Of a stretch of DNA of 64,000 bases, positions 4,339 to 21,756 are shown piece by piece. How positions within the stretch are numbered: position 1 is the stretch's first letter; each line of letters opens with the position of its first letter. The notes beneath the pieces are model-generated. The model was not told where the DNA came from and searched no databases. It worked only from the letters and a program-made list of their open reading frames with translations. The translations under genes were made by a program, and so were the position numbers. Source of the DNA: Rubripirellula sp. (GTDB taxonomy: Bacteria > Planctomycetota > Planctomycetia > Pirellulales > Pirellulaceae); contig OZ244207.1 in the NCBI GenBank assembly GCA_965216875.1, positions 3,648,001-3,712,000 of the forward strand. Direction: 5' to 3'.

Positions 4339-7224
4339 TCATGATCCAGACCCATTTTCTAGCAACTCGGTGATCGCCTTTTTCATTTCAGCGACCATTT
4401 TTGGGCCTCCGCCGACGTAAAGCCGAGCAATTTTCCCGTCAGGACCGACGATCACCATTTGAGGAATCGCTCGCGCCTCGTACCGATGAGCCGCCACGCC
4501 GTCGAGGTCCAGAGCGACCGGAACTTCCATCTCGTGACGCTCCATCACCGCTTTGACGTGGTCGGCCGGTTCTTCGAGATTGACCGAAACGAGTCGCACC
4601 ATCGCAGGATCGAACTCCGCAATCGCCTCTTCCACCAGAGGCATTGTCTGCATGCAGGGAGCACACCAGGTGGCCCAGAAATCCAAGACCACGATCTTGC
4701 CCTTCTGCTCACTCAATACGAATCGGTCACCGTCGAGCATGTCGAGCTTGATCTCGGGGGCCTCCTGACCAATCAACGTCGATTCCGAACCCACCGGTGG
4801 AGCCTCGCCGCCCGCGGAAGCGGAAGCCATCTTCGGTTCCACCGCAGAATGCAATACCCACTTGTTGTAGGGCAAGGACGAAACGGCTTGACCGATACCT
4901 TCGCCAAACAAAATTTGATCGACATCACGCAAGTCGAAGTTACAAAAGCCGACGACATCGCTGCGACCGGTGATCGCATCACCATCGACCGATTCAGGAT
5001 CAAAGGTTACCCGTTTGCCATCTCGCTTGAGGACCTGGGCCATATGCAAGAAGGGTGATTCCGTTTCGGGCTCTTTGTTTTCTTGAGCAGCCTTCTGCTG
5101 TTTCAACAAATCTTCGGGATGAAACCAAATGATTTGCGAGATACGACTTAGCGGAATGTCATATTCGTCTAGTTGCACTTCAACGCGAATCGAGTCATCA
5201 CGATAATTCAATAGTCGACACCGTAAGAAGTCGCCGTTTCGCGAACACAACAAATGGGTTGGTGGCGACGGTTTTTGCAAACGAGGCAACGTAAGCAGGC
5301 GTTCTTTTTTCGCCTCCTTCAGACTTGGCGGCGAGACGTTCACCACCCACTCGATCGCCTTGACCTTGTGATGCGGTACGACAGTGTTGTCGGCCCAAGA
5401 GGTTGAAAGATGCACGCCCTGTTCATCAATCGCTTGCACGAGGCAGGGAATCACATCACCCGAGCGAACATGCAAACGATGGGCATCGGGTCCGACGGGC
5501 GTCGCAGCGCTCTTGCTGTCGACCTTTTGCAAAAACAGCTTTCCGAAATTGAGTCCACGCTTTTGTTGTTGAACTCGAAGGCGTTGCATTTGAAGCGCGC
5601 GTTCGGCTGCCGCCGCGGACGAGGGGCTCGGCTTCGGAGGTGGGTCACGATAAACGATGCGGCCATCAGCCTCGTGTTTCAGGGTCGAGGCGCCAACGCA
5701 GCCAAAGCCTTGCCAACGAAACGTTGACATCCCTTTGTCGGCATCCTCGATCGCGGTCACTAACCGACCAGAAAGTTTGTGAGGGCCAAGTTCCAAACGC
5801 CCCGCGCGTCCGGTCGCTTCCGCATCCGCTCCGACCGGTTCACGTTGCATCACGATCAAAGTTCGCGCCATCTCGGCTGGCACGGAGATTTCGCCCTCAA
5901 CCTCATCACTTCGCATCACCCAATGTTTTTCGGTGACCCGTTGAACGCGTCCCGAAATACGAGTGCCATCATGCAAGAAAAGGCTCATCGGCAATTCGGA
6001 CGTTTCGTTCGGTTCGTGCGTCACCTTGACGGCGACCACATCGCCGATCGCGATGGGAACCTCTTCGGCTTCGCTGGTGACGATGAGGTTGCCCGCATCG
6101 ACGTCAAGTCTTACCGCATCGCCTGAGGTGATTGCACCATCGACGCGGGCGACGGCAATGTTCCCGCCCGATGTCGCTTTGGGAAGATTCCCCGACCAGC
6201 GAGAAATCCTGAGTCGTTCCAGCCGCACGGTGCCATGACGGTTGATCAGTCGAATGCCTCGGCCCAACTCGCGTTTGCCGACATCCTCTTTGGGCGGTGC
6301 CAGTTCGGCGAGTTTTGTGCCATCGGGTCGATAGATCATGATCTTGCCCGCTGACTGGTCGAGATACACCAGCAAACGAATCCCGGTTTTGTCCGCGAGC
6401 GAATCGACTTTTTCGACGTCAGCGGCTCGTTCATATTCACGCATGACCGCCAGCGTCTGGCCAAACGTTTCCAATCGCCAACCATCGGTGCGTTTGTCTT
6501 CGTCGCTGTCGTGATCGGCTGCGATCGCAACCATGAAATTGGGCTTTCCGACCCAAGAAAGCTCGATTTCGATCATCGCGCGATCGGGGACATCGAGATC
6601 GCCATTGATCGTCGCATCGTCCTTGTCGCTCCAGATCTGAGCACCGTCTTCTTGCCAGCCGACGGGATCCCAATTGGTTGTCGACCAGTCTTGAATACCG
6701 GCCAAACTTGCAAACACGAGCGTTGGGTTCTCTTCAAGGCGATACATCCGGCGAAGTGAGGCGGCTTTGACCTTCACCTTGCCAAACTGCTCCGATTGAA
6801 ACGTCAGCGTGGTATCGTCCCACGCGACCAAGTCACCCGACATCAAATCACCACTGACCAATTCAAAAGCGAACTGGCCTTGCTGTGTCATTCGCTGGCG
6901 GGCGGGTGGGAATTTGATCGACTTGATCGCATCGGTCAAAACTTGCATCGGCTCGACGAATGCATCGCCATGCCAAGTGATTGACTTTTCGGACGTCGAT
7001 ACACCGATTTCGCCTGCAATGGTGTTGCCATTGATCAGCGAAACGACGCCCGTCGTCTTCTCCGGAACGGGCTGAGCTTCGACGTCGCTCGTCTCTTCGC
7101 CCTTGTTCTCGGTCGTCGCCCCAAAATCCTCACCGATTCGGACGGCGCGAATTTGCTGCGCAGCCAAGCTGGCCGTCATCAGCAACAATATCGAAAACGG
7201 CAGCGTGAATCGAACCAGCTTCAT
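4339..7224 (-). CDS. Large exported protein with C-terminal TlpA/redoxin thiol-disulfide oxidoreductase domain
   Basis: Signal peptide MKLVRFTLPFSILLLMTASLAA (start reset to ATG 7224). C-terminal KGKIVVLDFWATWCAPC...IPQMVIVGPDG is a thioredoxin fold with CxxC and the cis-Pro. Confidence 0.85.
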   Translation of the reverse strand: MKLVRFTLPFSILLLMTASLAAQQIRAVRIGEDFGATTENKGEETSDVEAQPVPEKTTGVVSLINGNTIAGEIGVSTSEKSITWHGDAFVEPMQVLTDAIKSIKFPPARQRMTQQGQFAFELVSGDLMSGDLVAWDDTTLTFQSEQFGKVKVKAASLRRMYRLEENPTLVFASLAGIQDWSTTNWDPVGWQEDGAQIWSDKDDATINGDLDVPDRAMIEIELSWVGKPNFMVAIAADHDSDEDKRTDGWRLETFGQTLAVMREYERAADVEKVDSLADKTGIRLLVYLDQSAGKIMIYRPDGTKLAELAPPKEDVGKRELGRGIRLINRHGTVRLERLRISRWSGNLPKATSGGNIAVARVDGAITSGDAVRLDVDAGNLIVTSEAEEVPIAIGDVVAVKVTHEPNETSELPMSLFLHDGTRISGRVQRVTEKHWVMRSDEVEGEISVPAEMARTLIVMQREPVGADAEATGRAGRLELGPHKLSGRLVTAIEDADKGMSTFRWQGFGCVGASTLKHEADGRIVYRDPPPKPSPSSAAAAERALQMQRLRVQQQKRGLNFGKLFLQKVDSKSAATPVGPDAHRLHVRSGDVIPCLVQAIDEQGVHLSTSWADNTVVPHHKVKAIEWVVNVSPPSLKEAKKERLLTLPRLQKPSPPTHLLCSRNGDFLRCRLLNYRDDSIRVEVQLDEYDIPLSRISQIIWFHPEDLLKQQKAAQENKEPETESPFLHMAQVLKRDGKRVTFDPESVDGDAITGRSDVVGFCNFDLRDVDQILFGEGIGQAVSSLPYNKWVLHSAVEPKMASASAGGEAPPVGSESTLIGQEAPEIKLDMLDGDRFVLSEQKGKIVVLDFWATWCAPCMQTMPLVEEAIAEFDPAMVRLVSVNLEEPADHVKAVMERHEMEVPVALDLDGVAAHRYEARAIPQMVIVGPDGKIARLYVGGGPKMVAEMKKAITELLENGSGS

Positions 7225-7229
7225 CGCAA

Positions 7230-8276
7230 TCACCGCTCGTAAATGGGTAGGAAGCGATAGTTTACCGCTAGCGCCAAAAGCGAAAGCGTTGTCGACACAT
7301 AGGTGCCTTGATTCCCCTGCATGCTGCCATCGTCGTTTTGGACGTTCTTGAGCCGTCGCACAAGGAGCTTGTTCCATTTCTCCCAAGCATCAATGTCGCC
7401 TTGAAACAAGGCTTGGGCTTGGTAGTAACTTTGGTATTCGATACCGCCGTGGCCAGCACTGCCGCCGTTGATTTTGTTCTTCAAATACTGAAGCGTCGAA
7501 TCATATTGCTTCAGGTCTTTGCGACGAGAGATCGCGAACACGAGCGTTCCGATCGAGATGCGTGCTAGGGATTCGTCGAATCCGCCGATGCCACCCGAGT
7601 AGGCGACCTGGCCTGAGGGTGCCGTCATTTTCACAAAGTAGGAAATGGCTTTGTCCACCGCTTCATCGGGAACTTCGATGCCAGCATTGCGTGCAGCCAA
7701 CAACCCCATCAACACGGCGCCCGCAACGGACGTGTCAGCGTCATTGCCACTGGGACTGTAGCGCCAGGCCCCCATTGAGTTGTTCTTTTGGCTGGTAACC
7801 GCTGCGCGAACGGCAAGTTCGAGGGATTGGCCGATCGTTAGATTCTCGGCACTCGAACCCGACGGCCAAAGATTGCGATCGTCCACCGTCCCGTAGGCTT
7901 CGGCCAGTCCGAGCATGGCGAAACCGTGGTGGTACATGCTGTTTCCGAAGTAACCGGTGCCCTTGTCTTGGGTGCGGATCATGTTGCGCAAACAGCGGCG
8001 AATGTTACTGGCGTACAAACCAAAGTTGGGATCTTCGCCCGAGGCCAGGAAACACATCAGCGCCATGCCGCCAACACCTGGTCCTTGGTGACTCGATGGC
8101 CAACTGCCATCTTCTTTTTGCGTGCGCACCAAGAACTGCAAGCCGCGGTCGTACATCTCACGCACGTCACGTGGGACCGCATCACCGGTGCGAATCTCGA
8201 CCGCTTGCGCGTGCACGATTGACGGCAGCAACATCGGTAACAGAATCACCAACACCATAAAGATTCGAGAGCTCAT
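7230..8276 (-). CDS. Prenyltransferase/squalene-hopene cyclase repeat (alpha/alpha toroid) protein, exported
   Basis: QW-like repeats (FLVRTQKEDGSW, SQKNNSMGAWRY, VQNDDGSM) and a signal peptide. Start ATG 8276 overlaps the upstream stop (ATGA). Confidence 0.85.
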   Translation of the reverse strand: MSSRIFMVLVILLPMLLPSIVHAQAVEIRTGDAVPRDVREMYDRGLQFLVRTQKEDGSWPSSHQGPGVGGMALMCFLASGEDPNFGLYASNIRRCLRNMIRTQDKGTGYFGNSMYHHGFAMLGLAEAYGTVDDRNLWPSGSSAENLTIGQSLELAVRAAVTSQKNNSMGAWRYSPSGNDADTSVAGAVLMGLLAARNAGIEVPDEAVDKAISYFVKMTAPSGQVAYSGGIGGFDESLARISIGTLVFAISRRKDLKQYDSTLQYLKNKINGGSAGHGGIEYQSYYQAQALFQGDIDAWEKWNKLLVRRLKNVQNDDGSMQGNQGTYVSTTLSLLALAVNYRFLPIYER

Positions 8277-9061
8277 TCTTCCTCCTCGAACTGTGCCTGC
8301 AGGTGCGGCTCCATCGCTTTGCCCTGTTGGATCATCGCAGCGATGACCTTCCATTCGTCATCATTGAAGTAGGGACGCAGTTTTTCCGTCGGCACTTTGC
8401 TCATCTGCAAAAGTACCGCATAGAAATGCATACTCGACTGGCCGTAATACCTTGGCGGCTTGGTCTCATCGACGATCAATTCGATGATCGCGTCGCGTTG
8501 CTTCCGCGTCATCGGGACCTTGCGTTCAATCATCGAGAGCGTCATTCGAATGTTGTCGATGTAGATCGCCTTCTCGCGTTGGCGCTTCATCGCTTCGAAT
8601 TCGTGCTGTTGGTTTTCGTCCAAGATCGAATTAACTGTCTTGGCGAACAACGACTTGGGACCATGCAAACCGGCGTTGTACCGAGTTTGAAGTGGACGTG
8701 TCTTTTGCCAAACCTGCTGCCACTCGTCGCGTGGGATACCGCCAAAGGTCATGCCGCGTTTGACGCGTTCGTAGTCATTGAAGAAGCGGTGGATATCGCC
8801 ACTTCCAGCAAGTTCGAGTTTCTCGCGTTGGGCGTCCGTCAAATGCACCGCCATATCGACGAAATCGATCTGCACCTGCAGCGCTTCATCGGTTCGCTTC
8901 TTTGCAGCCGCGTGCGTGCGTTGATTGCCAAATATGTTTTGAACGAACGATTGCTCCGTAAACTGAATCAAGTCGTTGGCCATCACGACCTGCGCCGACG
9001 CTGGCTTCGCCACAGCGACGAGTGCCAAAAAACTGACTGCGATGATGAATCGAAGCTTCAT
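8273..9061 (-). CDS. Exported hypothetical helical protein
   Basis: 262 aa with signal peptide MKLRFIIAVSFLALVAVAKPASA. ATGA overlaps at both ends imply translational coupling. Confidence 0.8.
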   Translation of the reverse strand: MKLRFIIAVSFLALVAVAKPASAQVVMANDLIQFTEQSFVQNIFGNQRTHAAAKKRTDEALQVQIDFVDMAVHLTDAQREKLELAGSGDIHRFFNDYERVKRGMTFGGIPRDEWQQVWQKTRPLQTRYNAGLHGPKSLFAKTVNSILDENQQHEFEAMKRQREKAIYIDNIRMTLSMIERKVPMTRKQRDAIIELIVDETKPPRYYGQSSMHFYAVLLQMSKVPTEKLRPYFNDDEWKVIAAMIQQGKAMEPHLQAQFEEEE

Positions 9062-10041
9062 TGCTGAGCCTCCAATTCGGTCGTCTCCTCGGTCTCTGAC
9101 GCGGCCGCATCTGGCAGGTCCGCACTGGGTAGGTCCGCGTTGGGAGCTTCGGCGGTCCCATCATCACCAGCCTTTGGCTCGCTCTTTGGCTTCGGTTTTT
9201 CAAACGCCGGCAGTTCGACACCGAACGAAAACGAGTCTTGAACGCCAAGTTCCATCTGCCAACCAAAGTTGACTGACGTGTTGTTGTTGCGTTGTGTCCA
9301 AAGGGACTGCTGTCGATCGGTCAGGTGAGGTTTCAAGATGTAGGTTTCTGGGAGCCGGGCGTATTGGGGATACATGAACAGCCGGACTCCGGTTGACCAG
9401 CCCTTGCTCCATTTTTCGTTCAATTCGACCTTGATATCGTCATGCTGTTTGGGCGTTAGCAACAACGCGTCGTCGATGTGAACCAGCATGGTTCCGAGGG
9501 AAGCGTCTCGTTCGGCGGCGGCTCGCGCGGCCAACTCCTCTCCATAACGCTGAGCCACTTCGGCAGGCATGGTCTCTTTGATCACCGTTTCCAGCGCCGC
9601 GGTTATCTGGGGCTGAGGCTTGGGCCACTGGCTGGCGGCCTGGCGGATCTTTTGCAGGTCTTCGTAATGCTTCGAAAGGTGAGCGACAGCGAGTCGTCCA
9701 GCTCGATGAATCTCGTCAAATTGTTCGTCGTTGGGCTGGCAAACCTTTTTGACAAAATGCAATTCGACGGTAAGCACTTTGGACACAAATGGCGAATACA
9801 TGTTGGCAAAATCGCCATCCACGTTTTTGCGCACAAGCTCGGCCGGCTGAAGCGCCATGACCGGTACCGGCGCAGCCGGTCGAGCAGGCTTTCGCTCGCC
9901 ATTGATGAGATTGCCCAACACTTTCAAGACACCGCCTTCGTCTTGGGCATGAGTGCTCGACAGCATGCCCAGAACGATCGCGCTGACGACAGCAAGTCGT
10001 TTCACGCCGCAAAGGTGTTTCGTCAGTAAGCGATCAAACAT
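9058..10041 (-). CDS. Exported hypothetical helical protein
   Basis: Signal-like segment RLAVVSAIVLGMLSSTHA and acidic tail. ATG 10041 overlaps the upstream TGA (TGATG). Confidence 0.78.
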   Translation of the reverse strand: MFDRLLTKHLCGVKRLAVVSAIVLGMLSSTHAQDEGGVLKVLGNLINGERKPARPAAPVPVMALQPAELVRKNVDGDFANMYSPFVSKVLTVELHFVKKVCQPNDEQFDEIHRAGRLAVAHLSKHYEDLQKIRQAASQWPKPQPQITAALETVIKETMPAEVAQRYGEELAARAAAERDASLGTMLVHIDDALLLTPKQHDDIKVELNEKWSKGWSTGVRLFMYPQYARLPETYILKPHLTDRQQSLWTQRNNNTSVNFGWQMELGVQDSFSFGVELPAFEKPKPKSEPKAGDDGTAEAPNADLPSADLPDAAASETEETTELEAQQ

Positions 10042-13000
10042 CAGTCGTTCTGCCAACCCTCAAGCTGGTTGAAGTACTTGTCCAATCCAGTGCGGAACTC
10101 TTCGGGCAATGTCGCTCCGGCCGTTCCGGTCGACTGGCTGGATGCCGTCAAGTCTTCACGAACTTCCTTTTCATTCACTCCACTTCCGACCAACGCAAGT
10201 GCAGGTGTCTCGGTGTCGCCGCCACCGCCACCACCAGGACTTGCGCCACCACCGCCGCCACCGTTCGGGTTAAACCGCTTCGACTGCAGCAACAATTCGA
10301 TGATTTCAGTCTCCGCAGCAATCGCCGGTGCACCTGTCTCGGGACGTCGCAAAATGTCGACCGTCTCAAGCATGACATCTTCGACTTTCGACAGGAGCTT
10401 GATTTCCTTCGCGAATTGAGCTTGCGCGTCGGGCAACTCCTTGATTCGCTCGACGACTTTCTCCATTCGCACGCGGAACTCTTCTTGAGTTCCCGATAAC
10501 TTCTCGCCTGTCATCGTGTGTTCGGTATCGGTGACGGCAGGACGAGCCTGTTCGGCGACGCGTGTCTGCTCACGCAATTTCACTTCGCCTTCTAAGAGTT
10601 GCAAAACTTCCAATACGATCGATGGTGGCAAACTGCCAGCCGATTTGCAGCCCGGTCACAAACCGCCCTTGGTCACTTCAACCAGGTCTTCGGCCCAGCG
10701 ATCAAAGTTCTCACTCCAGTATTCCGCCTGTGAGATCGAAAGTCCGTTTTCTTTCTTCAAGTCATCACTCAGATGCCGAAGTCCCGCGGTCACGTCCTGA
10801 TCACGCATGTCATCCAACACCACTTTGAACCGCATGAAACGGCTGCGTTCGAAATAAGCAGCCATGTCGTCCATGATGTGCGAGGCTTCCTGGCTCGAAA
10901 CCGATTCGGTTTCAGACAGTTTCGCAAAGGTGTCTGCATTGCCTTCTTTCTGGCGGTTTGAGACCCCGAAAGTATCCGCGACCATCGAGCCGAGTTTCAT
11001 CGCAACTTGTTGCTGCTTTCGCGACGACGCCTTCAACCGCTTGACCAGAGTGCTGCCTTCAAGATTGGCAAGCACGTTGTTGAGTTCATCAACGATCTTT
11101 TCGAACTCGGCAAGCAGATCCTCTTGTTGCTCGACCGCTTCATCCACTTGTTCGTTCGCGGGTGGCGGTGGCTGATCACTCTTTTGGCCGCCGCCGGCAA
11201 GCATTGTTGTTGGCAACGTCAATCGTGGTTTCCCACCACTATCTTCTTGCGGTTCGCTTGGTTCCTTCGACTCAGGCTGATGATGCGACGATTCAACATC
11301 GCTGATTGTCGGAACCTTTGTGGGATCTTTTGGCTCGCCTGGCTTTTTGGGGTCAGCCGCGCCCGATTGAGTCAATCGGTTTTGCCCAGCCTTGGGAGCC
11401 TGGTTCTGTTGGCTCGGTGGACTTGACGGTTTCGCTGGAGCCTTTGATGCCTGCTTGAGCAGGTCGGCAACCGAAGGCATCCGGTTACCGCTAATGTCTT
11501 TAAGAACCTGCATCATCTCGGCCCACTTGTCCAAGTGCCCAACGCCGATCTCTGGATTCCGCATCGCCTCTTTGAGCAACATCTCGCCGAACGAGGTCAG
11601 GTTGGTGAGCCGACGCCCGTTGGCTCGTTCACCCTGGGCCTGCGAAGCGAGCAGGCGTCGGTTCTCGGGCCGATCGAGTTGCTCGGGCGACATGTCACGC
11701 AGTTGCTTGTTCGTTTCGTAAAGCTGCATCTCGCGATCGCGAACGTCCAATGACATGCGATGCCAGCGACTCAGCTCGGCCGTCACCCAAATCGCATGCT
11801 GTTCGGCGTTCAGTACGTTAAAGACGCAGGTCGGCGAATAGATGCGAGGTCGATCGGGAAAGTAGTCTTCGACAAACACGCGTACGGCCAACGGCTGTGG
11901 CGCGATCTCATTCTCTTTGGCCGAAAAGGTCGCGGCCAACTCGAGAAACTCGGCTTCGTAATCGCCGGCGCCGATCACCTTTTCGCCTTTGGCAAAACCT
12001 TGGACGGTTTCATCAAGTCCAACCCACTGAATCCCGACTCGTTTGACGCCAAAATCGTCGCGAGCTCGCACCTTGAACGTCAACACTTCGGTGTCGAGCA
12101 GAACCTTGCGGCGTGGCAGGTTTTCGCAAATCAACGTCGGCATTTCGTCATCGACGCCTTCGATGGTCAGTTCGAAGGGGCGTTTGCCGCTGAGCCCAAA
12201 CTGGTCCTCCCACTGCATCTCGATCTTTTCCGTTCCGTCAATCTTGACTGGTGGTGTCGAGAACTCGGAATCGGTTGTTGATTGAGGCTTGCCATTGACG
12301 AGCGCTGCCGATAGCTCTCGTGATGCGGTGGCCGTCAACGTGGTCTCGCTTCCTTTGACGACCGTCAAGGTCGCACCACGAATACTCTTTTCCAGCAACT
12401 TTTTGCGGCCGAGGTAATCGGGCAACTTCACTGCAGCCGACAAACCACTCAATTCGGGTCGCAACATCGGTTCGATTTTGGTTTCACCGGCAAAGTCACC
12501 GACGCGAACATTCAAATTGCTGTCGGCGATTTGCCCTGGAAGTTCAAAGTGATACTCGCTGTCGTCAGCAAGATCGGCCTCTTCGGCGGTGTGTCCTGCG
12601 AGGTTGACCGACGCCTTGGATGGTTTCCATTGCGTCGACTCTTGCAACTTGATCGCAACGTCGAACGATTCACCATGGGGCACGACGATCCGCTCGGGAA
12701 GTGGTTCGATCGCCGCGAACGTATAGCGAGGCGTCTCGCCCCAAGGCTTCAGGAAGCGTGCCCACGCGTTCTTTGCCGCAGCGGCGGTGAACAACAAGAG
12801 GGCAACGGCAACAAACCCGAGGAAGCCAACCGCGTACCCGCGTTGGATGTGTTGTGGATTGGGGATCGCGCCTCGCAGGTCTTGCTGCTCGACATTCTCG
12901 GCCACTTGCTTGATGGCCGCTTCGACCAGCTCGGGCGAGCGTGATTGCTCGGACGAATCTTCCGAGAGCTCGATCACACCAAGCAGTTGATCGCCAGCAC

Positions 13001-13349
13001 TTGGATGGGTTTGCGAAAGTAGACGCGCCAATTGGTCCATTCGCCTGCGTCGCCAGACCCAGCGTTCCAAACCGACCGGCACAAGCGCACACGCTGCGAT
13101 CGCGCCAAAGAAGATCACCGTACGAATGATCGCTGGCGTGTCAAAGAGACGATCAAGCGTATAGGTCAGCAGAAAGCCGACCAGAATGCCAATGACCGCG
13201 GCGGCGAACGCCTCGAACATCTTCAACCGCCAAACCCGCCCACGGAAATCGAGCAGTTTCGCTTTGAGCGATTCGGGGATCTGAAGTTGGTTATTCGACG
13301 TGACCTGCATGGGACCTTTTCTCCCAAGTGAAATAACTTGTGTTGTCAT
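10041..13349 (-). CDS. Large membrane-anchored coiled-coil protein of the MoxR/BatA operon (DUF4175-like architecture), ~1102 aa with one in-frame TGA at 10656-10658; candidate selenoprotein (UxxC)
   Basis: ORFs 10656-13349 and 10041-10631 share a frame: ...GAA GTG ACC AAG GGC GGT TTG TGA CCG GGC TGC AAA TCG GCT GGC AGT TTG CCA CCA = EVTKGGL*PGCKSAGSLPP. Three N-terminal hydrophobic helices and a SECIS-like hairpin downstream of the TGA. Confidence 0.78.
10624..10641 (-). promoter_or_regulatory. Candidate bacterial SECIS element (selenocysteine insertion hairpin)
   Basis: mRNA GG-C-UGGCA-GUU-UGCCA-CC begins 14 nt after the UGA. It has a bulged pyrimidine and a loop starting GU, resembling E. 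coli fdhF GGUUGCAGGUCUGCACC. Confidence 0.68.
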
Positions 13350-13478: not shown

Positions 13479-15689
13479 CTAGATCAGTCCTACCGCTTTT
13501 CTCCAAACCCAAAAGATTCCCAAAAGCAGGACAATCAGGGCGAACGCCAGCGGGTGACTCCAAAGTTGCAAGCGTCGCACCGATGGCGGTGGCATCGGCA
13601 AATCAGCCAGCGCCGCGATCACTTGGTCGATCTCCTCGGGTCGAACCGACTGGCCCCGTGAAACCATCGACAACTCCTGCAGCACTTCGGGCCGAGCCGG
13701 CTTGCCGACTTGTTCAATCTGTTGGCCTTGCACGAAAAAGTTCGCCTGCAGCGTCGCGCCCGTTTGTCGGCAAGCTAACGTTACGTCATGTTTGCCTGGT
13801 TCCGTTGGCACGTAACGACCTTCGAAAACACCCCAGCGATCGCCTTCGGCAGTCAAACGAATCGTGTCCGAATTGCCCGAAGGCGCGATGATTCGGGCCG
13901 TCACATCACCCTTGGCCAGCGGTTCGCCGCCGTTGTCCATCACATGAGCATGGAAGGTAAGCGTGCGTCGCATTTCGGGTTGATCGGGCGTGTAGTAAAG
14001 ACGCATCGTTTCGCCCTTGGCCATGTTGCGTTGGTACGCCATCCAGCGCACCACCTGACCCCAAAAGCGATAGTGGTACTTGTCTTCGACACCTTTACGC
14101 CACCGCCATGCACCGTCGGTTCCCATGAACAGAACCTTGCCCGCGCCGTAAGTGCGCGTCGCCAGCAACGGCAAGCGACCGTACTTGTTTGACATCTCGC
14201 CATGAACCGCAAGGACTTCGCAACCGGCTTTGGCGCGAATCACTGGAGCGTACCACTGGAATCCAGGCAGGTCTTCCCAAACTTGAACGTTCTCCTGGCT
14301 GGTATCGGCAAGCTTGGTCAACAAACTGCTTCGCCCGCGTTCAGTCAATTCAAAGTGGCCGGGTGTTCGCGATCCCCAACCGCCAAGTTGGGCCTCGTCC
14401 AAGATCACGGGGCACAACTCCTTCAAACTCGTCTCCAACAAGCTGAATTGTCGCCCCTGCCAACCAGGCATGAAGACAAGACCGCTGGCCTGATGTTCGA
14501 CCAAGCCTTTGACCAGATCGCATTGCTCTTCGGTCAATTGGCCATCTTCAAGTCCAACGTCTCCGAGAAAGACAACGTCGTATTGCGAAAGATCTTCAAT
14601 CGCTTCAGGAAAGGCTTTGATGTAATCCTTTGATCCGCCACCCACCTTGTCCAATCCGGGATGAAACAGCAAGCAAGAGACATCGACACCGGGATCGCGC
14701 GACAACGCGTTTCGCAAATAGCGGTATTCCCACCGCGGGTACGACTCGACCAGTAGGACTTTCAGTTTCTCTTCGCGAATCGCAATTGGCGCCGATTGTT
14801 CGTTGTTGCCGGGGATCGTTTCGTCGGCATGTTTGGGGATCGTCAAAGTGACCGAGTAGTCGCCCGTGACTTGTGGCTTCCAATTGATTGCGTCGGTCGT
14901 GCGACCCATCGGGGCAATGCGTACATCTTTGGTAAGCGTTTCGCCATCGGAGGTTTTCAGAGACACCGTCGTTAGGAACTCTCGTGGCAGTGAGCTGTCG
15001 ACGGTAAATGGAATCCGCACCACCTTGCCCGCCGTTCCAAAGGTTGGCAGGTCAACACTGACCAATTCCAAATCGGGCAATCGTGTGGCGCTGCCCGAGG
15101 CCACGGTGAAAACGGGAACGCCTTTGGTGCGCAGTCGCGATGCCGCTTCCACGGGCGGTTTGCCTTGGTTCCAATCGCCATCGGAAATCAATACGATCCC
15201 CAGCAGTTGGTTGACGCGTGCCGCCACTTCCAACAAGGGTTCGTTCAAATCCGTGCCAATCGAATTCGCTTCACCCACCGACTCGGGCGAAGCAATCGGT
15301 TCGACAACCACGTTAAGTTTTTCATCGAGTGCGTTCCACGCGTCGGCTTTGGTCAGCGAATCGATCGCCTCGGCTCGGGTGATCGCGCCGACTTCGGCGT
15401 CGCCAGTGACAACATCACGTGTCTGCATGCTTGCCGATTGGTCCCACAAGACGGCAATGGTTGGCTTTGCGTCGGGACGGTATTCTTCGACCCACTCGGG
15501 TTGGTTCAACAGGATCGCCACCATGGCAACGATCACAACGCGAAGCGTTTCCAAGCCGGCCACCGACCGCGAATAGCCGCTTCGCTGCCACGCGAAAACA
15601 CCAAGCGCCGCGGTTGCCAACACAACCACAACCGCTGCGACGACCGAAAAGGTTGTCCCCATGAAGGTGAGCTGCTGAACGGAGTTCAT
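13479..15689 (-). CDS. Membrane protein with vWA domain and class I glutamine amidotransferase-like domain
   Basis: N-terminal TM helices, MIDAS-like VLWDQSASM and VLISDGDWNQG, KVLLVESYPRWEYRYLRNALSRD, GAGKVLFMGTDGAWRWR, and a C-terminal TM helix. Confidence 0.85.
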   Translation of the reverse strand: MNSVQQLTFMGTTFSVVAAVVVVLATAALGVFAWQRSGYSRSVAGLETLRVVIVAMVAILLNQPEWVEEYRPDAKPTIAVLWDQSASMQTRDVVTGDAEVGAITRAEAIDSLTKADAWNALDEKLNVVVEPIASPESVGEANSIGTDLNEPLLEVAARVNQLLGIVLISDGDWNQGKPPVEAASRLRTKGVPVFTVASGSATRLPDLELVSVDLPTFGTAGKVVRIPFTVDSSLPREFLTTVSLKTSDGETLTKDVRIAPMGRTTDAINWKPQVTGDYSVTLTIPKHADETIPGNNEQSAPIAIREEKLKVLLVESYPRWEYRYLRNALSRDPGVDVSCLLFHPGLDKVGGGSKDYIKAFPEAIEDLSQYDVVFLGDVGLEDGQLTEEQCDLVKGLVEHQASGLVFMPGWQGRQFSLLETSLKELCPVILDEAQLGGWGSRTPGHFELTERGRSSLLTKLADTSQENVQVWEDLPGFQWYAPVIRAKAGCEVLAVHGEMSNKYGRLPLLATRTYGAGKVLFMGTDGAWRWRKGVEDKYHYRFWGQVVRWMAYQRNMAKGETMRLYYTPDQPEMRRTLTFHAHVMDNGGEPLAKGDVTARIIAPSGNSDTIRLTAEGDRWGVFEGRYVPTEPGKHDVTLACRQTGATLQANFFVQGQQIEQVGKPARPEVLQELSMVSRGQSVRPEEIDQVIAALADLPMPPPSVRRLQLWSHPLAFALIVLLLGIFWVWRKAVGLI

Positions 15690-17701
15690 GATGCTGCTCC
15701 TTCATTGGCGAACATTGGCCCCGATCCCTTCGTCACCTTGCGTGGGATGCACAACGCTGCCTCGAGCACGAGTGCAACGAGCATGATGACTAAGAAGAGC
15801 CGCCAGATCTCCTGGATCAACGACGTGCCACTTCCTGCGCTGTCGTCGACACGGTCAAAGTCGAGCTGTTCGAATAGCCCCGCCACACGATCTTGAGAAA
15901 CGACCGCTGCGACGTCTTCGTCAGCGCTGCGATTGATGGCGAGCAATCGATCCTCTTCGCGGTAGATCCCAGCGTGCGACGCGAACTCACTTGACAACGC
16001 ATCGACCTCGCCAGCGAGTTGCCGCCATTGGGCCGTGTCGGTGGTCGCCAGGGCGCCAGCCGAAACTTGTCGTGTGTTGCCCAGTGACTTGGCACCTTCG
16101 GAAAGGGCTCGTTGAATCATCGCGTAAAGCACCACCCCATCTCGAGCGAGCGACGAATCCGACTGCAGCGCCGTCGTGCTGCAGAAGTAGATGTTGCGAG
16201 CATCGGTGACCGCCTGGGCAAGCAGTGCCGCACCACCGTCAAGTGTGGCGAGAGTCAGCCGTTCTCCCTCGAGCTCGCAGTAGCGATGAACCTTCCACTG
16301 TCCCACGGGAAGGGACGCACCACTTCGCACTTTTGCCAACAAGCCTTGATCACCCGACCAAGTCGAAACCTGAAACGTTTGTTCCTTGTCTTGCCAGTCT
16401 GCCCAGGAAACACCAGCAAACGAATCGGTCGAAGGCGTTGTGGGAGGAAAAAAGATGACCTGACCGCCCCGATCCAAGAATGCATTGAGCTGTCCGCCAA
16501 GGCTGTCGGCGGCGTCGCCACTGGGCAAGTCTGATTGCCAAAGCACGAGCGAAACCTCGTTCCAGTTCACGCCGATCAATTGATCGGGTGAAACCGAAAT
16601 CGCTTCGCAGCGAATCTCCTGTGACGGCGAAATCGAAGCTGCAAACTCGAGCGGCCGGGTTGCGTCGGGATCATCACTGACAATCACGGTCTTTCGCACG
16701 ACCGCTTCGTCGTAAACAAAAAAGAACTCATTGTCCGCGGGACTGGTGTCGGTTGGAATCGAAACGCGTCCCCAACCTCGCGTCTTGCCGCCGTCGAGTT
16801 CAAAGGGAATGTTCTTCAGATCAACTTCCGTCCCGGTGATCTCAGCCGAGAACTCGCTCCGCGCGCCGTCGAGTTCCAACGTGATCGGAATCGTCTGAGT
16901 CGATTCCGCCGGCGTCATCTGTTCGATGCGCAGCGAAAGCAACAGTTCGGGACCGTCCTCGCCGACCACGCGACGCGCATCGGTCACACGTATCGAACGG
17001 TTGGTGGGATCCACATCGGTGTAGGCCAACAAATGGAAACGCACCATTTGCGGCAGTTCCTGCAGTGACTTGCGAACCGCCGTCCAGCGTCCGCTCTCAT
17101 CTTTCCAGTCGTTCCGGCGGACGTCGCTGCAGATCCAGATTTCACAGCGACTCGGGCGATTGGCCCGAATGTACTCGTCGGCAACCTCCAACATCGTTGG
17201 CACATCTGCCGACGCACTCACCGCCCCAGTCTCGGGCAGGTCCTGCAGTACCTCGGGCGATTCAATTTCGACGGCTCGCTCATTCACACTATCGATGAGG
17301 ACGTAGCGATTCGATTCGAGCAAGCTTAGCGAGCGGACCAGTTGGTCGACGCCCGACTGTAATTTGGTTCGGCCACCGGGACCACTCTGCGTCATACTTG
17401 CCGATCGATCGAGCAGGATGATCGTCGTGTCGACCTTGCTGCCAGCCGCGACGCCGATCCAACCACTGGCAAGTGGTCGTGCAATCGCAAACAGCAATCC
17501 TGCGATGGCAAGCGTTCGCGCGGCAAGGATCAACCATTGTCGCAACCGAGCGTAACCGCGCGACATTCGATTGGCCTGCAACAAAAAGGCCATTGCCGCC
17601 CACTGCACGGTTTGAAACCGGCGTTGGTTGATCAAGTGAATGATGATCGGTAGCGCGATTACTGGAATCGCAAACAGCATTGCAGGCTGAATGAAACTCA
17701 T
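15686..17701 (-). CDS. BatA (aerotolerance regulator) N-terminal domain and vWA domain protein
   Basis: MSFIQPAMLFAIPVIALPIIIHLINQRR...WAAMAFL...LFAIARP is the BatA double-TM signature. Also LLDRSASM and a C-terminal IWRLFLVIMLVALVLE helix. Confidence 0.88.
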   Translation of the reverse strand: MSFIQPAMLFAIPVIALPIIIHLINQRRFQTVQWAAMAFLLQANRMSRGYARLRQWLILAARTLAIAGLLFAIARPLASGWIGVAAGSKVDTTIILLDRSASMTQSGPGGRTKLQSGVDQLVRSLSLLESNRYVLIDSVNERAVEIESPEVLQDLPETGAVSASADVPTMLEVADEYIRANRPSRCEIWICSDVRRNDWKDESGRWTAVRKSLQELPQMVRFHLLAYTDVDPTNRSIRVTDARRVVGEDGPELLLSLRIEQMTPAESTQTIPITLELDGARSEFSAEITGTEVDLKNIPFELDGGKTRGWGRVSIPTDTSPADNEFFFVYDEAVVRKTVIVSDDPDATRPLEFAASISPSQEIRCEAISVSPDQLIGVNWNEVSLVLWQSDLPSGDAADSLGGQLNAFLDRGGQVIFFPPTTPSTDSFAGVSWADWQDKEQTFQVSTWSGDQGLLAKVRSGASLPVGQWKVHRYCELEGERLTLATLDGGAALLAQAVTDARNIYFCSTTALQSDSSLARDGVVLYAMIQRALSEGAKSLGNTRQVSAGALATTDTAQWRQLAGEVDALSSEFASHAGIYREEDRLLAINRSADEDVAAVVSQDRVAGLFEQLDFDRVDDSAGSGTSLIQEIWRLFLVIMLVALVLEAALCIPRKVTKGSGPMFANEGAAS

Positions 17702-18609
17702 CGAATCCCCCGCGACTTGGTTCGGCCGGCCAGGAACCGCAGCAACACCTGCTCGTACGCTTCATCCACGCTGATTCGGTGATAGTCGATCGCCGACTCA
17801 AGCACGATCGATTTGATTTGATCCAAATAGGTGTGCAGCGCCTTTTGATACCGATCAACAATTTCGGTAGGTTCAGCAAAGATCGACGTGCCCCCTTCCA
17901 TGTCAACAAACCGCGTCGGCCGTCGAAACTCGAAGCCCAGTTCTTGAGGGTCGAGCAAATGAAAGACCGCCACGTCATGTTTGCGAAAACGAAGGTGGTC
18001 AAACGCTTCACGCAGCTGTTCGGGATCGACGAACAAATCAGACATAATCACGACAAGTGCGCGCTGCCGCGTCGTTTCGGCAAACTCGTGCAATCGGTTG
18101 ACCAATTGCGTGTCGCCCGCCGCGTCGGAATGCTCGAGCACATCGAAGATGCCTCGCAAGTGCGACGGCGTTCGTCGGGGTGGAATCGTGCGAACGATTT
18201 CCTCGGCAATGCAGGTCAAACCGACCGCATCGCCTTGCTGGACGGCCAAGTAGGCGAGCGAACCGGCCAACCGCCGAGCGTATTCAATTTTGGTCACGTC
18301 GCCGGAACCAAAGTTCATGGAACCGCTCGTGTCGAGCACCATGCAGCAGCGCAGGTTCGTGTCCGCTTCGAACTCTTTGACGTAGAAACGATCGGTGCGA
18401 CCATAGGCGCGCCAATCGAGACGCCGCAAATCATCACCAGGGACATAGCGTCGGTATTCTGCAAACTCGACGCTGGCACCGCGATGTGGGCTCGCGTGCA
18501 TCCCCGAGACACTTCCGACCATCGCCCGTCGCGCGAACAACGGCACCGCCGCAAGTCGTGCCAACGCCTGCGGGTCAAGGAAGCTGCGATTGTTATCGTC
18601 GGGGAGCAT
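17698..18609 (-). CDS. DUF58 domain-containing protein (MoxR-associated)
   Basis: GASVEFAEYRRYVPGDDLRRLDWRAYGRTDRFYVKEFE, VLDTSGSM and VVIMSDLF. Confidence 0.92.
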   Translation of the reverse strand: MLPDDNNRSFLDPQALARLAAVPLFARRAMVGSVSGMHASPHRGASVEFAEYRRYVPGDDLRRLDWRAYGRTDRFYVKEFEADTNLRCCMVLDTSGSMNFGSGDVTKIEYARRLAGSLAYLAVQQGDAVGLTCIAEEIVRTIPPRRTPSHLRGIFDVLEHSDAAGDTQLVNRLHEFAETTRQRALVVIMSDLFVDPEQLREAFDHLRFRKHDVAVFHLLDPQELGFEFRRPTRFVDMEGGTSIFAEPTEIVDRYQKALHTYLDQIKSIVLESAIDYHRISVDEAYEQVLLRFLAGRTKSRGIR

Positions 18610-18657
18610 GGTGGTTTGTACCGACCGCGGTTTGGCGGCGGCTTTGGTGGTTGCAAG

Positions 18658-20628
18658 TTAGTTGGGTGTCGCGTAGATCAACCATTTTCCGTCGGGGCTG
18701 AAACAAACGGAGGTCACCGCTCGCTCTTCACCCACTTCTTTCATCCGAATCGGCGTGCCGTCGCCCTCGGGCGAAAACTCGTAAAGCAACGCCTTTTTCT
18801 TTTCAGGTGTGTTGAGGTTGAACACAATCCGCTTGCCATCGGGGGACCAAGCCAAATCGGCGCCAATTTGTCGGTCGGTTGCGTGGTAGGTCTTCAAATC
18901 GGGGGCGCCAGTCATATTAACGATTGCCAACTGCTGTTTGTTAGGCAAACGCCCCTTAAACACCATCCGCTTGCTGTCAGGCGACCAAGCCATGTTCCAG
19001 AAGATGTACTGGTACGGGTGCTCGCCCTTGGCCAACACGACCCGCGTCTCTTCCGAATCGACATCGTAGACGCGCAGGGAATTGTCATTGGTGTAGGCAA
19101 TCGACTTTCCATCAGGTGACCATTGGGCAGCCCAACCGTCAGCGATTCGCTTTTCAGGTGTCCCGTCGGCCTTCATGATCCAAATGCCACTGCCACCCTC
19201 GTAGCGTGAACAGGCAAAACGTTCCCCATCAATCGACCAACTCGGCATCAAGCCATCTGTCAGGTTGTGCACATTCTTGCCGTCAGGCGTCATCTTCAAG
19301 ATGCGCGCCTTGCTGATGCCTTGGCTCGGCGTGACGTCAAACGCGATCCACTTGCCGTCGTTTGAAACGGCCGGAGAACCGCAGGTCGGGAACTCGCGCC
19401 GCCGATAAACTTCGCGAGACACGCCGTCTTCGAGCGAAATCATAACGAGCGAATGAATCGCTTTGCTCTTGAATTCGAATTCGTCGGCCGACAGCTTGTT
19501 GTCACGATCCAGGTCGTGACGGTGAAAATAGAAACGACGATGCAATTGAAAGAGACTGCGTTTGTTTGAAAAGACAAACTCTTCAAATGAAAGAAACGAG
19601 TCATCGTTGTCGTCTTTCGGGATCGATCCCCACGAATAGTTATGGTTGCCGAGCATCGATAGACGAAACTCGCTGAGCGAGAGTTTGCCGTCGCCATTTT
19701 CGTCAAATCCCGATAGTGATGACGAAATCAAACTCTGGCGAAACCCTGGCGTCGAATCACGCAACTCATGCTTGTCCAACAACGCATCAAAGTTCGTGTC
19801 GGCTTTGCGAAAATCTTCGATCGGATCAACGATGTTGGGTCCATCGACTCGAGTGAACTCACGGAGTGTGATCCGCCCATCGTTATCACGATCCGCCGCC
19901 TCAAAGTCAGCTTCGGCCGTTTGAGGACGCCACCAAGTTTCGATGAATTCCTGTTTCGAAATCACGTCGTCGGAGTTGGCGTCGCTGCGCAGAAACCGCG
20001 CAAAGTTCACCACGCGTCCATTTTCCAAACGCAGTTTGTTACCGGTCGTCCAACGGATCCCAAGTTGGATCTCAAGAAAACGCTTCGCCTCTTCGCGGGT
20101 CACCGAATGATCACCGTTCGGATCAGCCTGAGCAACGATTTCGCGTTCGAGCCGACGACGGTTGTCCGTCGACAATGAGGCTGCAAAGTTGATCGCAAAG
20201 AACGTGCTGTTCATTTGCTCGGTGGTTCGATTGTTCCAACCATCGTAGGCTTCATCCAAAGCCTCGATCGCTTGCTCGAGCAAACCGTCATAAGGGTCAG
20301 GCATCGGACCGCGCTGACGTGGCTTGCCGCTGCTCGGAGTCATGTCGAATTCGCTTTGCGAAAGCTTTTTGTCGCCGTTGAAATCGAAAAGCTTGAAGTC
20401 ACGACGCAAAACGCGAGCATCACCGCCCCGTTTAAGGTACTCCTCCTCGCTCAGTTGCCGATCTGCGTCCTGGTCGAGGACGGTGAACGCCGCGCGGCGT
20501 AACTGAGCAAGGCGTTCGGCGGAATCTTGGCCCAGGAGCGTCTGACAGGGCAAGGCAAGAACCATCAACAGCGCAGCGGTGATCGCCGCGACTGCATGAT
20601 TGTTCATCAAGCCCGACAAAGTCCGCAT
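18658..20628 (-). CDS. Exported EF-hand repeat protein with C-terminal TolB-like (PD40/WD40) beta-propeller
   Basis: Signal peptide, about ten DxDxDGxxSxxE-type loops (DFNGDKKLSQSEF, DRDNDGRITLREF, DENGDGKLSLSEF), then WSPDGK repeats. Confidence 0.85.
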   Translation of the reverse strand: MRTLSGLMNNHAVAAITAALLMVLALPCQTLLGQDSAERLAQLRRAAFTVLDQDADRQLSEEEYLKRGGDARVLRRDFKLFDFNGDKKLSQSEFDMTPSSGKPRQRGPMPDPYDGLLEQAIEALDEAYDGWNNRTTEQMNSTFFAINFAASLSTDNRRRLEREIVAQADPNGDHSVTREEAKRFLEIQLGIRWTTGNKLRLENGRVVNFARFLRSDANSDDVISKQEFIETWWRPQTAEADFEAADRDNDGRITLREFTRVDGPNIVDPIEDFRKADTNFDALLDKHELRDSTPGFRQSLISSSLSGFDENGDGKLSLSEFRLSMLGNHNYSWGSIPKDDNDDSFLSFEEFVFSNKRSLFQLHRRFYFHRHDLDRDNKLSADEFEFKSKAIHSLVMISLEDGVSREVYRRREFPTCGSPAVSNDGKWIAFDVTPSQGISKARILKMTPDGKNVHNLTDGLMPSWSIDGERFACSRYEGGSGIWIMKADGTPEKRIADGWAAQWSPDGKSIAYTNDNSLRVYDVDSEETRVVLAKGEHPYQYIFWNMAWSPDSKRMVFKGRLPNKQQLAIVNMTGAPDLKTYHATDRQIGADLAWSPDGKRIVFNLNTPEKKKALLYEFSPEGDGTPIRMKEVGEERAVTSVCFSPDGKWLIYATPN

Positions 20629-20631
20629 CCA

Positions 20632-21756
20632 TTAACCCCGCGCTGCCGAAGCCGATGCGCCACTATCGATCCCACCTTCGACCGTTTCCTTGACCAGACG
20701 ACGCACGATTTGGCGCGCGTCAACGCCTTCACTTTGTGCTGCAAAGGTCGTGATCATGCGGTGCGTCAACACGGGCTCGGCAACCGCTTCGATGTCTTCG
20801 AGTCGCACCATGTATTGCCCGGCAAGCGCCGCACGTGTCTTGCCACCTAGAATCAAATACTGAACCGCACGCGGACCAGCCCCCCAAGAAACAAGCGGCT
20901 TGAGCCAATCAGGGGCGACGTCTTCGCGGGGACGAGTCTTGCGAACAAGCTTGACCGCAAATTGGTAAATGTGATCCGGCACAGGAACGCGACGCGCCAA
21001 GTGTTGGAACGCCAAGATGTCTTCGGCATGCAACAGCGCGTCGAGTTTGGGCAATTGATCACCCGTCGTTGTTCGCGCGATCTGAATCTCTTCGGCTTCC
21101 GATGGATAGTCGAGCTCGATCAGGAACATGAATCGGTCAAGCTGCGCCTCAGGCAACGGATACGTTCCTTCCTGCTCGACCGGGTTTTGGGTGGCAAGAA
21201 CCAAGAAAGGTTCGTCCAAATCGTACGGCTTGCCGAGCACCGTGACGCGATGCTCTTGCATCGCTTCCAACATGGCAGCTTGGGTCTTTGGTGGAGCTCG
21301 GTTGATCTCGTCGGCCAAAACGATGTTGGCAAACACTGGTCCAGGCACGAACTGAAACTCACGACGTCCCTCGGCCGTGTCTTGCAGGATGTCGGTGCCG
21401 GTGATGTCCATCGGCATCAGGTCGGGTGTGAACTGAACACGCGAAAAATCGAGCGACATCGTTTCGGCGACCTTGCTGACCAAAAGCGTTTTGGCCAAAC
21501 CAGGCACCCCCATCAACAAGGCGTGACCGCGAGCAAACAGACAGATCAATAATTGCTCGATCACCTCCGATTGACCGACAATCACCTTGCCCAATTCTTG
21601 CTTCAGCTTTGCGTGGCACTCCTGCAACCGTTCGATGTGCTGGACATCATCCGAACTGAGCTCTTCAGACGTGCCAGCACTTGCCTGCGAAGGGGAATCA
21701 TTCATCGAACGGGGATGCTCCGAAGTCAACGGGGAAAAACCAGGTGATGGGTCCAC
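20632..21756 (-). CDS. moxR: MoxR family AAA+ ATPase
   Basis: Walker A GVPGLAKT, RVQFTPDLMPMDITG, Walker B VLADEINRAPPKTQAAMLEAM, and ATQNPVEQEGTYPLPEAQLDRF. The true start may be slightly downstream (MNDSPS). Confidence 0.95.
   Translation of the reverse strand: MDPSPGFSPLTSEHPRSMNDSPSQASAGTSEELSSDDVQHIERLQECHAKLKQELGKVIVGQSEVIEQLLICLFARGHALLMGVPGLAKTLLVSKVAETMSLDFSRVQFTPDLMPMDITGTDILQDTAEGRREFQFVPGPVFANIVLADEINRAPPKTQAAMLEAMQEHRVTVLGKPYDLDEPFLVLATQNPVEQEGTYPLPEAQLDRFMFLIELDYPSEAEEIQIARTTTGDQLPKLDALLHAEDILAFQHLARRVPVPDHIYQFAVKLVRKTRPREDVAPDWLKPLVSWGAGPRAVQYLILGGKTRAALAGQYMVRLEDIEAVAEPVLTHRMITTFAAQSEGVDARQIVRRLVKETVEGGIDSGASASAARG

Follow-up and report, generated by a model that had tools for sequence, protein, structure and literature searches.

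In Escherichia coli fdhF, the selenocysteine insertion sequence (SECIS) is a hairpin with a bulged U in its stem and a GU in its loop; it follows the UGA codon after an 11-nt spacer, and the loop G and U stand at positions 23-24. For bacterial SECIS (bSECIS) elements in general, the bSECISearch model of Zhang and Gladyshev, in the summary given by a 2026 review (PMC13188914), describes a loop of 3-9 nt, a stem of 4-16 bp, a spacing of 16-37 nt, a G among the first two loop bases and a minimum free energy (MFE) of -7.5 kcal/mol or lower. Here we analysed a stretch of 64,000 nucleotides from the planctomycete Rubripirellula sp. (assembly GCA_965216875.1, contig OZ244207.1, positions 3,648,001 to 3,712,000 of the forward strand), referred to as the window, in which a minus-strand gene is interrupted by an in-frame UGA with a short hairpin directly downstream. 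An earlier note on this DNA had proposed that the hairpin is a functional SECIS. Comparison with homologous loci makes it very probable that the hairpin at 10641-10624 indeed serves as a bacterial SECIS for the UGA at 10658-10656.

The in-frame UGA and its hairpin

The gene (10041..13349, minus strand) has 1102 sense codons including a putative selenocysteine (Sec) at position 898, and ends with a TGA at 10043-10041. It is made up of two open reading frames (ORFs) in the same frame, one of 897 codons (10656..13349) and one of 196 codons (10041..10631), which are joined by the UGA of codon 898 (10656..10658). The residues around Sec898 (G-G-L-U-P-G-C-K) form a UxxC motif, and the local sequence of the read-through protein is ...VTKGGL-U-PGCKSAGSLPPSIVLEVLQ... 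The UGC codon at 10647..10649 (minus strand) encodes Cys901, a possible resolving or partner cysteine of this motif; since homologs have Cys, Gly, Ser or Ala at the aligned position, the partner is not conserved. Under translation table 11, the 196-codon ORF starts at a TTG at 10631, which is located within the hairpin. Standard gene calling would give a two-gene annotation of the locus. Reading the UGA as Sec restores a protein of 1102 residues that is conserved in Pirellulaceae-like planctomycetes.

The upper hairpin spans 18 nt (10624..10641, minus strand). It begins after a spacer of 14 nt and is composed of 2 bp, a bulged C, 5 bp and a GUU loop (10631..10633), the G and U of which occupy positions 26 and 27 counted from the U of UGA, giving a UGA-to-loop distance of 22 nt. 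The final base of a Ser codon and the codons for Ala-Gly-Ser-Leu-Pro-Pro supply its sequence. These features agree exactly with the minus-strand reading of the earlier note, including the 14-nt offset, the C bulge and the GUU loop, and RNAfold, which the note had suggested as a check, predicted the hairpin in the MFE structure as well as in the centroid.

The hairpin resembles the fdhF element in its short G+C-rich stem, in the C-G and A-U closing pairs near a small G-U loop and, in the window copy, in a single bulged pyrimidine in the 5' arm. It differs in its GUU triloop, its spacer of 14 instead of 11 nt and the C in place of U as the bulged base. With the bSECIS consensus as summed up in PMC13188914 it shares the position within the coding region immediately 3' of the in-frame UGA, a 3-nt loop with G first and U second, an upper stem of five contiguous base pairs (seven with the bulged C) and a spacing which, at 22 nt, lies inside the published range of 16-37 nt. 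The suggestion of a planctomycete variant of spacing, made in the earlier note, is thus not borne out.

Hairpin and UGA across homologous loci

A protein search with residues 780-1103 gave 1239 matches, and figures for the UGA-aligned column were taken from the 120 listed. Nearly all of the matches listed are about 1090 residues long, all of them span the UGA junction, and the source names available are Rubripirellula, Rhodopirellula or Planctomycetaceae. Opposite the UGA, 94 of these 120 have Cys and 26 have Ser, usually in the context C-G-x-C-P-G-C. Because gene callers truncate Sec forms, such a protein set is skewed to non-Sec forms, and we therefore searched whole genomes in six frames, using 201 genomes of the same taxonomic family with the window's own genome included. 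A homolog was present in 87 of them, many with one or two internal TGAs.

Ninety loci were fetched from this search, of which 81 were recognised by a motif filter and form the basis of the Sec and non-Sec counts given here. The nine remaining loci were L056, L069, L070, L089, L096, L099, L103, L106 and L107. Seven of the nine were re-read: the hairpin is present in two Sec forms (L096 and L099) and absent from four non-Sec forms (L056, L069, L103 and L107), and L106 gave nothing beyond a spurious match. Among the 81 readable loci, 39 contain an in-frame TGA and 42 contain none. In 27 loci the TGA is confined to the window's codon. Another 11 have it there and also 5-6 codons further upstream (G-P-G-U-x4/5-U-P-G), and one (L083) has it at the upstream site alone. 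TGA thus occupies the codon aligned with that of the window in 38 loci, which come from 36 genomes and whose identity in the query region falls to about 40-45%.

The codons that build the hairpin are fixed in the Sec forms. The Ser codon is AGU in 39/39 Sec forms versus 12/42 non-Sec forms, and the Leu codon is UUG in 38/39 versus 18/42; the same peptide is spelled with varying codons in the 42 forms that lack TGA. Elsewhere in the Sec forms, synonymous sites are saturated, since a Leu seven codons downstream is encoded by six different codons in the same 39 sequences. Their loop is GUU in 38 and GUC in one, and the 5-bp core helix is paired in 95.7% of cells. Pair 27-39 occurs as C-G (20), U-A (11), G-C (3) and A-U (1), and is unpaired in two. 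The covariation score was matched in none of 500 column shuffles, and when the 3' partner is shifted by 1-3 columns, pairing falls to 17%-62%. In the non-Sec forms the same columns are paired in 48% of cells, which is the shuffled level (267 of 500 shuffles reach it).

Scored as at least four of the five core pairs plus a loop starting with GU, the hairpin is kept in 38/39 Sec forms versus 3/42 non-Sec forms, as expected from the earlier claim of a functional SECIS. The mean free energy of the 24-nt segment is -9.2 and -9.7 kcal/mol in the two classes of Sec forms versus -2.75 kcal/mol in the non-Sec forms. When hairpins are counted whose loop starts with GU and has no more than 5 nt, which stand 19-26 nt past the UGA and which have a free energy of -4 or lower, only 39 of 6000 random TGA triplets of the genome (0.65%) are followed by one.

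The association was also followed on a tree, a quick maximum-likelihood estimate from 79 C-terminal sequences under LG+G4 with Shimodaira-Hasegawa-like approximate likelihood ratio test (SH-aLRT) support only; the short rows L078 and L104 were dropped, and the Sec/Cys trait column was kept in the alignment. At least 11 changes between Sec and non-Sec are required, six of them forced by well-supported branches. Across six independent pairs the hairpin changed concordantly in about five and in the opposite direction in none. The nearest non-Sec relative of the window's gene (L025, with Ser, in a genome that has selA) has lost the hairpin. A hairpin-like AGU-UUG stretch is seen in four Cys forms (L061, L065, L080 and L146); L080 is nested in a clade with two Sec codons and may have switched from Sec to Cys recently, its SECIS being a relic. 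At a threshold of E <= 1e-60, selA was found in 149 of the 201 genomes. It is present in 35/37 genomes with TGA forms, the two misses being 86% and 82% complete, and in 17/41 genomes that have only forms without TGA.

The window's genome (8.26 Mb) encodes the Sec machinery. A tRNA-Sec scored 71.5 bits and was called SeC with anticodon tca by ARAGORN; selB (343.5 bits), selA (507.5 bits) and selD (249.3 bits) all exceed the curated cut-offs, and selD, selA and selB are clustered at C1:325282-330621 on the minus strand (loci L009, L017 and L020). The open frame at the selD match has 749 aa against a model of 311 positions, so that SelD may be part of a fusion with another domain. One more match to the tRNA-Sec model (C1:4264107-4264192, plus strand, locus L002) reached 48.3 bits against a cut-off of 47 and may be a tRNA for Ser or Leu with a long arm instead of another tRNA-Sec.

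The earlier note had also pointed to the other selenoprotein genes of this genome, fdh among them, for comparison of their hairpins. Three genes of the AhpC/TSA family carry an in-frame TGA (C1:6090313-6090681, minus strand; C1:1772056-1772424, plus strand; C1:4481535-4481927, minus strand; loci L114, L123 and L136). The TGA stands at the position of the redox Cys, in the contexts T-G-G-U, W-U-P-H-C and C-L-T-U, and each is followed by a hairpin with a loop GU at positions 25-30 from the U of UGA; one of these hairpins shares the A-GUU-U apex with that of the window. The three genes are likely further selenoproteins of the genome. Among the molybdopterin (formate-dehydrogenase-type) genes of the genome, none of four domain hits has an internal TGA.

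Two further details are the bulge and a possible lower stem. A further difference from fdhF is that the bulge is not conserved: a C bulge is possible in only 15 of the 39 Sec forms, where it is confined to the Ser-Ala-Gly codon type. In the Ser-Arg-Gly type the stem irregularity is shifted, and the 14 Sec forms whose spacer is shorter by one codon lack a bulge, nine of them with a fully paired 7-bp stem and five with a mismatch. Being restricted to one codon type and missing from the short-spacer forms, the bulge is not a conserved determinant, and the bulged C does not mark a planctomycete variant, which the earlier note had thought possible. By the published consensus the hairpin is very probably an ordinary bacterial SECIS and not a special planctomycete variant. 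The second detail is an extension of the stem by an AUC/GAU pairing, which the note had also put forward. A possible lower stem AUCG/CGAU (10618..10644, minus strand) flanks the upper hairpin; it is part of the MFE structure of a 49-nt stretch (-11.1 kcal/mol, RNAfold) and is paired in 89.9% of cells in the alignment of Sec forms. Its changes are one-sided, however, and it lies in constrained Lys-Ser and Ser-Ile codons, so that we do not count the lower stem as shown.

Several observations speak against a functional SECIS. Compared with dinucleotide shuffles, the fold energy is no better (z = +1.31 for 81 nt and +0.59 for 49 nt), although such single-sequence scores are useless here because the hairpin is so short. 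The contiguous 5-bp core is weak, at -4.5 kcal/mol (-6.7 for the 18-nt hairpin with bulge), and the -7.5 kcal/mol of the consensus summarised in PMC13188914 is reached only if the lower stem, which the alignment supports weakly, is counted. No SECIS model of Rfam matched, the sole hit at E <= 10 being noise (NEAT1_1, E = 6.3). Hairpin-like sequence is kept in three of the non-Sec loci (L061, L065 and L080) and in L146 outside that count. A single stem pair covaries, the remaining pairs being invariant or located in constrained codons, and the sign test on the independent pairs gives only p = 0.0625, which is the limit attainable with six pairs. With default settings, RNAalifold returned no pairs for all 39 Sec forms. 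From the first 10-25 rows the 5-bp core is predicted, and it is lost at row 26, because there the third row mismatched at pair 29-37 enters; the rows concerned have Asp GAC (five) or Val GUC (one) for Gly GGC. When the penalty for non-compatible rows is set to 0, a 7-bp helix is predicted at -10.3, and the helix evaluated on all 39 rows has -5.2 kcal/mol (5 bp) or -9.8 kcal/mol (7 bp). We regard the comparative evidence as decisive over the unimpressive folding of the single sequence.

Some of these points would also suit the explanation that the hairpin is a functionless by-product of the Gly-Ser-Leu-Pro-Pro codons, GGN and CCN being complementary. The stem is indeed made of Gly (GGC) and Pro (CCN) codons, the peptide is near-invariant among homologs, folding is no better than in shuffled sequences and a similar hairpin occurs in the four Cys forms named above. 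The earlier note had stated that equal conservation of the hairpin in Cys homologs from Sec-negative genomes would count for a codon by-product. Among loci with the identical peptide GSLPP, however, the hairpin is present in 32/32 Sec forms versus 1/8 non-Sec forms, and only 2/25 non-Sec loci from genomes without selA are hairpin-like, so that conservation is not equal. Moreover, Ser AGU and Leu UUG are fixed only alongside TGA, pairing in non-Sec forms does not exceed that of shuffled columns and pair 27-39 of the stem covaries, taking all four Watson-Crick forms. A change of the first Pro codon to Ser (UCN) in the paralogs L096 and L099 is offset by matching changes in the 5' arm; L099 has an A-U pair in place of the A.C mismatch seen in the Gly-Asp type. 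The by-product explanation is largely refuted by these data, and we consider it very improbable.

A different account accepts read-through of the UGA and ascribes it to a near-cognate tRNA for Trp or Cys; the hairpin would then stimulate read-through or cause a pause. Downstream structures promote read-through of stop codons elsewhere, and Sec is assigned to residue 898 by sequence comparison, a point that also weighs against our own interpretation. Against this account, TGA forms are tied to selA, the recoded position aligns with Cys, the usual counterpart of Sec, and three more genes of the genome have TGA at a redox Cys followed by GU-loop hairpins; in addition, the hairpin with its GU loop fits the SelB-type consensus outlined in PMC13188914. 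We judge this account highly unlikely. A plain stop is very improbable too, be it a pseudogene, a sequencing error or a true split into proteins of 897 and 196 aa with a hairpin that is incidental or acts on coupling or termination: table 11 does give two ORFs with the TTG at 10631 opening the second, and gene callers would call two genes, but the TGA recurs at the same aligned codon in the 38 loci and down to the identity given above, selA accompanies nearly all TGA forms, the aligned residue is Cys in most matches listed, conservation is continuous over the junction and the candidate TTG sits in the hairpin.

For a functional SECIS, the following course of events is conceivable. SelB-GTP carrying Sec-tRNASec would bind the apical hairpin, presumably by its GU-starting loop closed by A-U and C-G. 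With UGA-898 in the A site, the hairpin would start after 14 nt and its loop after 22 nt, where the mRNA enters the ribosome, and SelB would deliver Sec-tRNASec in place of release factor 2. The ribosome would then melt the hairpin and translate Ala-Gly-Ser-Leu-Pro-Pro, and the resulting membrane-anchored protein of 1102 residues would expose Sec in a loop (U-P-G-C). The family offers a natural data set of Sec/Cys exchange, with at least 11 switches that are each accompanied by gain or loss of the hairpin, and the determinants of its SECIS can be read straight from the conservation of synonymous sites.

Spacing between UGA and hairpin

The distance between UGA and loop varies among the homologs. 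At the window's site it is 22 nt in 25 loci with the long spacer and 19 nt in 13 loci with the short spacer. In the two-UGA forms (L086, L088, L092-L095, L097, L098 and L109-L111), all of which have the AGU-UUG hairpin, the upstream UGA is 34 nt from the loop in four loci and 37 nt in seven; the loop G-U of these relatives lies at positions 23-24 from the UGA, as in fdhF. Forms with Sec at the upstream site only retain the hairpin as well, at 37 nt in L083, L141, L142 and L099 and at 40 nt in L096. L141 and L142 come from another family of the phylum. In a sample of 301 genomes of the phylum, a homolog threshold of E <= 1e-20 detected the protein family in ten genomes: the window's genome and one other of the same family (no TGA), 6/15 genomes of a second family (no TGA) and 2/2 of a third (TGA).

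A separate second hairpin for the upstream UGA of the two-UGA forms was considered, and no consistent structure was found. The G+C-rich stretch of these forms folds variably from locus to locus, and the second UGA is often looped. The simplest reading would be a single SECIS for both codons, working over up to 37-40 nt. We tentatively propose, with slightly less than even confidence, that one short hairpin may serve UGAs at very different distances and, in some relatives, two at once. The observed distances of 19, 22, 34, 37 and once 40 nt run through the range of 16-37 nt summarised in PMC13188914, and the last exceeds its limit. Should the proposal be right, the SelB/SECIS pair would tolerate spacing at and beyond this published limit, and the family would provide a natural spacing series for the question how SelB tethered to a SECIS reaches the A site. 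The series of 19, 22, 34, 37 and 40 nt bears on the constraint on UGA-SECIS distance outside E. coli.

The protein, its gene row and described selenoprotein families

An AlphaFold2 model of the read-through protein based on 57 sequences has a mean predicted local distance difference test score (pLDDT) of 79.3. It predicts N-terminal helices including transmembrane segments (residues 26-200), three immunoglobulin (Ig)-like beta domains (220-513), long helices (515-636), a disordered stretch (639-727), a helical bundle (731-1021) and a Gly-rich disordered region (1031-1078). Sec898 is placed in a low-confidence loop (895-901) that would join two long helices of the C-terminal bundle. A Foldseek search of the full-length model against the PDB returned generic tandem Ig-like hits to the middle of the protein only and none for the helical domain that carries Sec. 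Two six-residue Gly runs (GGGGGGASPGGGGGG; window 10161-10205, minus strand; residues ~1031-1045) are near-invariant in the 57 homologs in spite of their predicted disorder.

The Sec loop of homologs shows the motifs C-x2-C-x2-C, C-x5-C, U-x2-C and U-x4/5-U, and some homologs are without any Cys. From these motifs, a redox or metal-binding role of the loop appears likeliest. The read-through protein has no Pfam match apart from weak noise of transmembrane type, and no NCBIfam family at E <= 1 except noise at NF040584 (E = 0.21). DUF4175, the UniRef name of the homolog P0071, was considered and dropped, as Pfam gave no such hit at E <= 1.

Upstream of the gene, Pfam searches assigned five minus-strand genes: a MoxR AAA+ ATPase (20632-21756), an EF-hand/WD40 protein (18658-20628), a DUF58 protein (17698-18609), a protein with a BatA N-terminal domain (15686-17701) and a GATase1-like/Filamin protein (13479-15689). 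Together, the genes at 13479..21756 are a Bat/MoxR-type gene row. Three downstream genes on the same strand (9058-10056, 8273-9061 and 7230-8354) have no significant Pfam match. They are followed, in the same row, by a gene for a 1015-residue protein (4339-7386, minus strand) with a C-terminal AhpC/TSA (thioredoxin-fold) domain and no match over its first ~870 residues. The ORF next to the selenoprotein gene, with a TTG start at 10056, overlaps the end of that gene by 16 nt (10041-10056), which suggests translational coupling. Further away, a protein of 443 residues (2667-3998, minus strand) combines TPR repeats with two RNA polymerase alpha C-terminal domains, an unusual combination. With Sec at residue 898, selenium chemistry would have a place in the "aerotolerance-type" row of MoxR/DUF58/BatA genes, which is poorly understood.

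A full-text literature search revealed no paper linking selenocysteine to Pirellulaceae or a selenoprotein to DUF4175, and in a term search planctomycetes were unmentioned in the texts on BSepDB, deep-Sep and in the ISME J 2016 text. Kim et al. 2016 (PMC4807772) reported selenoprotein candidates of the planctomycetes P1 and P2. Their Table S9 contains one 'hypothetical' P1 candidate that was annotated as two genes, has a SECIS according to bSECISearch and has a Cys form in Rhodopirellula sallentina as its closest hit. This candidate, for which no sequence or description is given, may or may not be a member of the present family. The paper describes no family with its SECIS or two-Sec forms.

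The host family is not among the 119 prokaryotic selenoprotein families in Table 1 of the 2026 review (PMC13188914). With the families listed there it shares a UxxC-type motif, Cys homologs and a patchy exchange of Sec and Cys, and also a minority of members with two Sec residues, UxxU and UxxxxU families being listed as well. None of the listed families, however, is a membrane protein of ~1100 residues from a MoxR/DUF58/BatA row, and the structural model places Sec in a flexible loop between long helices and not in a thioredoxin fold. The host gene appears to represent an undescribed selenoprotein family, with one or two Sec residues in a loop of a membrane protein of a Bat/MoxR operon.

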